Positions 24,515 through 24,613 of a stretch of 27,753 nt of DNA are shown here, in pieces. The position numbers were made by a program, and so were the translations under genes. The notes under the pieces were generated by a model. The model searched no databases, had not been told where the DNA came from, and worked only from the letters and a program-made list of their open reading frames with translations. The number at the start of each line of letters is the position of its first letter. Positions within the stretch are counted from its first letter, which is position 1. The DNA lies in the NCBI GenBank assembly GCA_044226625.1, contig JBGAGQ010000079.1:1-27753 (forward strand), in the 5' to 3' direction. The stretch comes from Thermoanaerobaculia bacterium. GTDB taxonomy: Bacteria > Acidobacteriota > Thermoanaerobaculia > Multivoradales > UBA5704.

Positions 24515-24613
24515 TCAAATAGACATACCGACCGGATCTATAATTGAACCACCGTCTACCTGCATGCCGCCAACGGGATCGATGACTGTGCCACCATCGG
24601 ACATGAATTCCAT
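24515..24613 (-). CDS. 32-aa peptide with two DGGxxIDPVG repeats
   Basis: MEFMSDGGTVIDPVGGMQVDGGSIIDPVGMSI*. AAGGAG 7 nt before the ATG. Below the ORF-track cutoff. Confidence 0.75.
   Translation of the reverse strand: MEFMSDGGTVIDPVGGMQVDGGSIIDPVGMSI

Follow-up and report, generated by a model that had tools for sequence, protein, structure and literature searches.

We have found that a 32-codon frame in positions 24515..24613 (minus strand) of the window, as we call the whole stretch of 27,753 nucleotides that was analysed, is well supported by its sequence and its homologues as a real coding small gene. It contains two copies of a motif unit, DGGxxIDPxG. Our preferred reading, which we hold tentatively, is that this gene is translated into the leaderless B peptide of a lineage-restricted three-part module, A/B/R, in which the unit docks on a TPR-type domain. 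In such a module A would be a small protein with a short hydrophobic N-terminus that bears a (D)GGxxIDPxG unit close to its C-terminus or right at it, B would be a tiny cytoplasmic peptide formed by Met and one or two units, and R would be a membrane protein with two or four helices and a cytoplasmic C-terminal TPR-like domain. The unit would then be a linear ligand epitope: A would present it tethered at the membrane, while B would be a free copy, bivalent in the window, which competes with A or activates the receptor. A variable residue, the x of DPxG, would set the specificity in a pherotype-like manner. Our confidence in this ligand mechanism is moderate to low.

The frame is read from an ATG at 24613-24611 to a TGA at 24517-24515 and has a Shine-Dalgarno (SD) sequence AAGGAG (24621..24626, minus strand) 7 nt 5' of the ATG. 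The first unit (24569..24598, minus strand) begins 5 residues into the frame and the second one (24527..24556, minus strand) stands 14 residues past the first. The frame, its SD sequence and spacing, and the two units with their 14-aa period had been given in a preliminary description of this DNA and are confirmed on the sequence. That description saw no leader or signal peptide, and by inspection we agree: the peptide has no hydrophobic N-terminus, no signal peptide or Trp-rich helix, and neither Lys nor Arg. A scan of the genome for further DGGxxIDPxG frames, which it had proposed, gives only two matches in the six frames of 6.6 Mb (67.7% GC), both inside the 32-aa frame itself. The two units differ in 9 of their 30 bases, and 7 of these differences affect the third position of a codon (binomial p = 0.008 for an expectation of one third). 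This indicates an old two-unit repeat whose amino acids have been preserved.

The protein collection includes the 32-aa product among the called proteins of the window's contig, and a word-indexed protein search with a 47-aa version of the frame, starting at TTG, matched only this product. Pfam has no match for the peptide at E <= 0.01 and the ESM Atlas no usable one. With phmmer, 1.84 billion representatives gave three matches at E <= 0.001: the peptide itself, P0006 and P0007. The sole true relative is P0007, a metagenomic, leaderless, multi-unit protein with a 14-aa period. P0006 (1622 aa, metagenomic, acidic) was set aside as probably unrelated; its E = 6e-12 comes from the repetition of units of the type AESGAVVDPIAEL, about 14 aa long, of which more than 20 stand in tandem. 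The preliminary description had also suggested a search of metagenomes. When metagenome contigs were searched with the peptide alignment, 600 pattern stretches matched and none of them passed tblastn. Locus searches of genome contigs with P0007, and with the STAND protein encoded next to the peptide, confirmed nothing.

Upstream of the peptide gene lies a second small gene, which was absent from the preliminary description. We assign it to the A type (43 aa; 24642..24773, minus strand) by its frame, by an SD-like GGAGGG (24782..24787, minus strand) 9 nt 5' of its ATG, and by the order of A followed by B in related loci; its start codon was chosen by analogy. The putative product has a short hydrophobic N-terminus, then Arg-Arg, and ends in a degenerate unit, ...GIDPVG followed by the stop. 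This third unit is found 45 nt upstream, in a reading frame which differs from that of the 32-aa peptide. The five IDPVG codons of the three units in the window differ by synonymous changes only. The gene is atypical when compared with its relatives: it is shorter, its unit is degenerate and it has no Pro-rich linker. The hydrophobic stretch of A proteins has about 9-12 residues, mostly lacks a positive N-region and has Arg or Lys after it; by our reading it is therefore not a canonical signal peptide.

Both small genes are located in a low-GC island (21271..25003), which stands out in the composition profile with 52-57% GC against about 68%. According to Pfam it is flanked by genes for a thiamine-pyrophosphate (TPP) enzyme and a secreted S9/PD40 peptidase; no flanking direct repeats are found at its ends. 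The promoter and terminator scan gave no minus-strand site. A stable hairpin of 10 bp with a 4-nt loop and no U run is found in 24470-24495 (minus strand), about 20 nt past the peptide stop and ahead of the STAND gene; the whole spacer between these two genes has a folding z of -0.56. Apart from the island, an open frame of at least 325 aa (26779-27753, plus strand) runs off the end of the window. It has a signal-peptide-like start and no Pfam family. A repeat of about 60-70 aa occurs in it three times or more, and every copy has ...LDHLNP... and Cys-bearing ...LCVPV.KN... stretches.

The same site can be compared in other genomes of the genus. In G007 and G001 the flanking genes are 114-125 nt apart and the site is empty. 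In G006 and G004 they are 2.2 and 3.2 kb apart, with small motif genes in between. An A gene is found at this site in G004, G002 and G006, followed about 20-25 nt on by an SD-preceded B gene of 13, 27 and 16 codons, respectively. The products of these A genes begin with a short hydrophobic stretch, continue with a Pro-rich linker and bear a single unit at the C-terminus or close to it; those of the B genes start with Met and another 2-3 residues, after which come one unit and 0-14 further residues. All B genes in the relatives are preceded by a purine-rich SD-like site. B shares the frame of A in two of the genomes and not in the other two; separate initiation explains all of these cases consistently, read-through or frameshifting does not. 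G004 has an additional leaderless gene of 53 aa with two units, the second of which has flanking residues in common with the window peptide.

Among 10 units from four same-genus genomes the pairwise differences at codon positions 1, 2 and 3 are 99, 37 and 276, and the invariant Gly, Asp and Pro are each spelt with 2-4 different codons. The same-genus islands are one ancestral event and not independent cases. The preliminary description had counted a lack of conserved frame or motif in related loci among the grounds for refuting it; both are conserved there, so that its reading passes this test.

Some features of the RNA may be mentioned for these loci. Directly 5' of the SD site of the A gene, a GC-rich hairpin GGGCGCC..GGCGCCC with a short T-rich stretch is present in G004 (L009 9660-9720), G002 (L010, about 450-500) and G006 (L043, about 5230-5290), and it could be a terminator or an attenuator. 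The window has a different hairpin of 7 bp at the equivalent site ahead of its A gene, with no T run. The sole Rfam match in the loci of the relatives is a sub-threshold Acido-Lenti-1 RNA in the flank of the G004 island (L009 8274-8319, minus strand), with 28.8 bits against a gathering score of 37 and E = 0.007.

At the end of the island in G002, G003, G004 and G006 we find the third gene, R, on the opposite strand (convergent). It codes for a membrane protein of 281-358 aa; the copy in G003 is cut by the contig end. The copies are mutually homologous (blastp 1e-9 to 1e-45), and a word-indexed protein search with R gave four members only. In the G004 copy, the one that was scanned, no Pfam family is detected at E <= 0.001, and neither an HTH nor a phosphatase domain. 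An AF2 model based on a 6-row alignment has 2-4 N-terminal helices of modest confidence, followed by a C-terminal domain of 155 residues (190-344) with stacked helices and a pLDDT of about 90. When this domain was compared with 48,161 chains, nearly all the best matches were TPR domains (Z 8.4-10.8, rmsd mostly 3.1-4.7 Å). They include a Chlorobium TPR-like protein, the STAND TPR sensor 6mfv, Hop TPR1 with its peptide, AimR (Z 9.9) and PlcR with PapR (Z 9.4). Foldseek found no match for the R model at E <= 0.001, and the ESM Atlas gave weak TPR leads only. Since values of Z near 10 are common for helical repeats, we call the modelled domain TPR-like and do not consider it a proven TPR. It probably faces the cytoplasm, as the Lys and Arg counts of the loops put the N-terminus inside and the number of helices is mostly even (positive-inside rule).

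The module extends beyond one genus. A profile search of 92 family genomes detects R in 29, which are spread over 8 of 11 genera. We fetched 30 receptor loci with 1.5 kb on each side. The strict motif is found in a frame in 15 of them, and with a looser motif a small SD-preceded frame is present in 19. The other 11 have no motif frame within 1.5 kb, even in the looser scan. In 12 loci A (39-63 aa) and B (10-27 aa, leaderless) are found together, and several of the B genes have exactly ten codons. One of these 12 loci is in G057, which belongs to another genus (stretch L076): it has A, a B gene of 11 codons and an R with 36% identity to that of G006. It also has a leaderless two-unit gene of 35 aa, with the same 14-aa period as the window peptide. 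A protein of 372 aa from an unknown family is encoded directly upstream of the R gene of G057 and overlaps it (L076 6177-7292, plus strand). We discarded it as a part of the module; it recurs beside R, with 60% identity, only in G012 (L098).

Among the roles put forward in the preliminary description, a cytoplasmic bivalent ligand fits this context best, given that leaderless relatives of 10-27 aa adjoin a membrane protein with a probably cytoplasmic TPR-like domain; binding itself is a step that we infer. The variable residue is also of interest. In 12 of 13 loci, the window included, the x of DPxG is identical in A and B; it may be V, I, W, G or D in different loci, and it is V in all three units of the window. 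A quick receptor tree was built with 23 of the 30 receptors, as seven were not captured by the ORF criterion and were dropped. In this tree the G state needs at least two origins, and both A and B have G in all three such loci. The clustering of x labels on the tree is not significant, with 6 changes against a shuffled mean of 6.6. The agreement between A and B could come in part from shared descent or from gene conversion within a locus; the units do differ at synonymous sites both within the window and within G004.

The window itself has a different composition. Its genome, which is 98% complete, has no detectable homologue of R (none at E <= 1e-10 in the profile search, none with tblastn), so that the proposed partner is absent where the 32-aa frame lies. 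The place of R is taken by a gene for a protein of 1032 aa (21271..24369, minus strand) with Metallophos, NB-ARC (STAND) and TPR regions, identified with Pfam and PADLOC. Its repeats are TPR_12/MalT-like, and PADLOC gives a weak partial match to the candidate system PDC-S60, limited to the phosphoesterase domain (residues 9-267). Its full-length orthologues (63-66% identity) are sporadic, in 18 of the 92 family genomes at E <= 1e-30 with the window genome included; in G003 and G105 the gene seems to be split into two pieces lying side by side. The GC content of the gene (53-57%) is below that of most orthologues in sister genera (mostly 0.59-0.73 per 500 nt), which suggests that it was recently acquired. 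The most economical history would be one of an older peptide island in which the STAND gene took over the place of the receptor. The window island would thus have kept A and B, lost R and gained in its place an ATPase with a TPR domain of its own, and the peptide would be either orphaned or re-partnered.

The first of these outcomes deserves attention as a rival to the ligand reading. The receptor may have been lost when the STAND gene arrived, and A and B may now be functionless genes which have not yet decayed. The lack of an R homologue in a nearly complete genome, the degenerate A gene and the position of the STAND gene, exactly in the slot of R, are what one would expect from such a remnant. 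However both frames are intact and have kept their SD sites, IDPVG has been maintained in all three units with synonymous changes only, and the two-unit core with its 14-aa period is also kept in P0007 and in G057. We consider this outcome rather unlikely.

The second outcome is that the peptide is now a ligand or regulator of the STAND ATPase, for example by binding to its TPR sensor and gating the metallophosphoesterase effector. The two genes are on the same strand, the STAND gene 145 nt downstream of the peptide gene, in one low-GC island, and the STAND repeats are of a type beside which the unit recurs elsewhere. Against it, no motif frame is found within 1.5 kb in any of the nine orthologue loci that were fetched (63-66% identity), and the conserved partner of the peptides is R, whose domain has no specific similarity to the STAND protein in a profile comparison (probability 0.1%). 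The layout of effector, NB-ARC and TPR in the window gene is common to STAND NTPases with TPR sensors (MalT, Avs-type, PDB 6mfv). It differs from an antiviral STAND system (Avs-like) with a conserved accessory gene, since the peptide is absent beside 9 of 9 orthologues. No STAND system is known to have a co-encoded small peptide ligand. Such a role is improbable, and a functional tie between the peptide and the STAND protein has in general a low probability. There is little likelihood also for a more elaborate version, in which A and B form a membrane-tethered and free ligand pair for cytoplasmic TPR sensors, pherotype-like, and have been re-wired here from R to STAND, with the bivalent 32-mer gating the oligomerisation of the Metallophos-NB-ARC-TPR protein.

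The unit is also found in a wider family of small proteins. As a DNA pattern, GGxxIDPxG is matched 215 times in the 92 family genomes, while a reversed control gives 6 matches. In 401 genomes sampled across the phylum there are 213 matches against, by our count, about 21 for the control, and among the matches listed most are singletons. Own matches aside, the search in the 92 genomes gave 29 loci. In 16 of them the unit, present in 1-4 copies, belongs to a small protein (80-130 aa) that has a Sec-type signal peptide and a Trp-rich helix; the others resembled chance matches in long frames and were left out. The three loci found in metagenomes with a two-unit DNA pattern are all members of this signal-peptide family. 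Its proteins often end exactly at ...DPxG, their unit is [DE]GGxxIDPxG, sometimes with a 14-aa period, and they have no Pfam or NCBIfam family. The adjacent gene in 9 of the 16 loci codes for homologous soluble proteins, about 440 aa long, in which an H-x4-C-x2-C motif at the N-terminus is combined with TPR_12/MalT-like repeats (zinc-motif/TPR proteins of the anti-sigma type). The genome of the window has 24 paralogues of this protein on other contigs, 7 of them with an upstream small protein (manual reading). Two of the paralogues in L057-L064 (C83, C81, C76, C124, C51, C125, C46) directly follow ECF sigma genes. A complex prediction for one such protein (L012) with its own mature small protein, which is a different pair from that of the 32-aa peptide, gave an uninformative score of 0.02.

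As signal-peptide small proteins adjoin zinc-motif/TPR proteins in 9 of the 16 loci, the unit is seen to recur beside TPR-type domains in different architectures. The 32-aa frame has in common with the exported family the [DE]GGxxIDPxG unit, and the family also has a TPR-type neighbour. It differs from it by having neither the Sec-type signal peptide nor the Trp-rich helix. The partners are also different: that of the exported proteins is soluble, with H-x4-C-x2-C and TPR repeats, whereas the conserved partner of the 32-aa type is membrane-anchored and has no zinc motif. The similarity between the receptor domain and the zinc-motif/TPR family is weak in a profile comparison (E = 0.004, probability 8%) and not specific. 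No H-x4-C-x2-C/TPR protein is adjacent in the window, where the neighbours are the STAND protein and the TPP enzyme.

From this family one might suppose that the 32-aa peptide is an exported signal or a RiPP-like precursor with several cores, whose units are cleaved or modified and released. The multi-core precursor of the preliminary description agrees with the wider family, with its Sec-type signal peptides, 1-4 units and frequent ...DPxG ends, but not with the 32-aa frame, which has no leader and no modifying enzyme in the scanned neighbours. In Bacillota, tandemly duplicated pheromone propeptides give a precedent (PMC11343458). However the other B genes are also leaderless, some of only 10-13 aa, and no protease or transporter was found among the scanned neighbours either. 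Pfam assignments among the window neighbours and in the G004 island are limited to an aldehyde dehydrogenase, the TPP enzyme, the STAND protein and the S9/PD40 peptidase, and the last of these also flanks the empty sites. The leader and the co-located modifying enzyme of a RiPP precursor are thus both missing in these two places. We find this origin for the 32-aa peptide hard to accept.

A structural or metal-binding role, such as an RTX-like calcium-binding turn or self-assembly as a beta-hairpin, is very unlikely. There is a loose likeness between the RTX nonapeptide (GGxGxD) and GGxxxD with a hydrophobic residue after it, and DPxG is turn-prone. However the units are single or have variable linkers and are not tandem nonapeptides of the beta-roll type GGxGxDxUx. 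Pfam and NCBIfam have no match for the peptide or its relatives, and none of the RTX family is found in Pfam at E <= 1 for 15 relatives. The assembly fold suggested in the preliminary description has gained no support: AF2 gives no confident fold for the 32-aa peptide, with a mean pLDDT of 55 and no defined secondary structure, a result which is uninformative either way. Finally, a chance or untranslated frame, or a conserved DNA or RNA element, might be thought of for a sequence in a 630-nt spacer, but it is extremely improbable when the divergence is dominated by third positions and keeps the amino acids, both the SD site and the start codon persist from one genus to another, and Rfam has no match at E <= 1 across 24200-25200 of the window.

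Returning to the ligand reading, by analogy the A/B/R module resembles a cassette of a peptide and a TPR-type sensor. The closest systems for comparison are the RRNPP(A) ones of Bacillota and their phages (Rap-Phr, PlcR-PapR, Rgg-SHP, AimR-AimP), in which a very small and often overlooked peptide gene is found beside the gene for a cytoplasmic TPR-type domain, as the B genes of the relatives are beside that for a TPR-like and probably cytoplasmic one, and in which the peptide residues diversify in a pherotype-like way, to which the variation of x may be likened. The adjacency holds for the relatives, with a motif frame within 1.5 kb in 19 of 30 receptor loci, and not for the window, which has no receptor homologue. 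The module studied here differs in other respects. It belongs to Acidobacteriota, its receptor is membrane-anchored and, in the G004 copy, has no HTH or phosphatase detected with Pfam; there are two motif-bearing genes in each locus, A and B, and no sequence similarity is known. The output domains of RRNPP(A) systems are not found in this copy, which has 2-4 membrane helices at its N-terminus. Since the B peptides have no export signal by inspection, a cycle of secretion and re-import is not implied, although their export is conceivable.

A second comparison is given by Hop/Sti1, whose TPR domains recognise the C-terminal EEVD peptides of Hsp70 and Hsp90; such domains are clamps for C-terminal carboxylates. 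A short acidic motif placed at a C-terminus or close to it is common to both cases. Besides Hop TPR1, several TPR complexes with chaperone peptides are among the structural matches of R. Hop/Sti1 is a eukaryotic chaperone system and has no sequence relation to the module. In the literature consulted, supplements aside, on the motif, on anti-sigma/TPR proteins, on RRNPP outside Gram-positives and on peptide signalling in Acidobacteriota, nothing describes the motif or the module. RRNPP_Detector is framed for Firmicutes, and the word 'Acidobacteria' does not occur in the main text of its paper.

Annotation misses most genes of only 10-32 codons. Those described here form a set which is conserved in eight genera or more, each gene with its own ribosome-binding site, with a second small gene that matches it in its residues and with a receptor-like protein as a neighbour. 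If the unit is a TPR ligand, the A/B/R loci would represent a peptide-sensing module in Acidobacteriota of an unusual design, with a leaderless cytoplasmic copy and an anchored copy of one epitope. This could be tested directly with synthetic peptides of 10 residues and the soluble domain of 155 residues. The window illustrates how such a module may lose its receptor or exchange it for a STAND ATPase. If the re-wiring to the STAND protein were true, an endogenous peptide would control a STAND protein, and this in a phylum without described peptide signalling.
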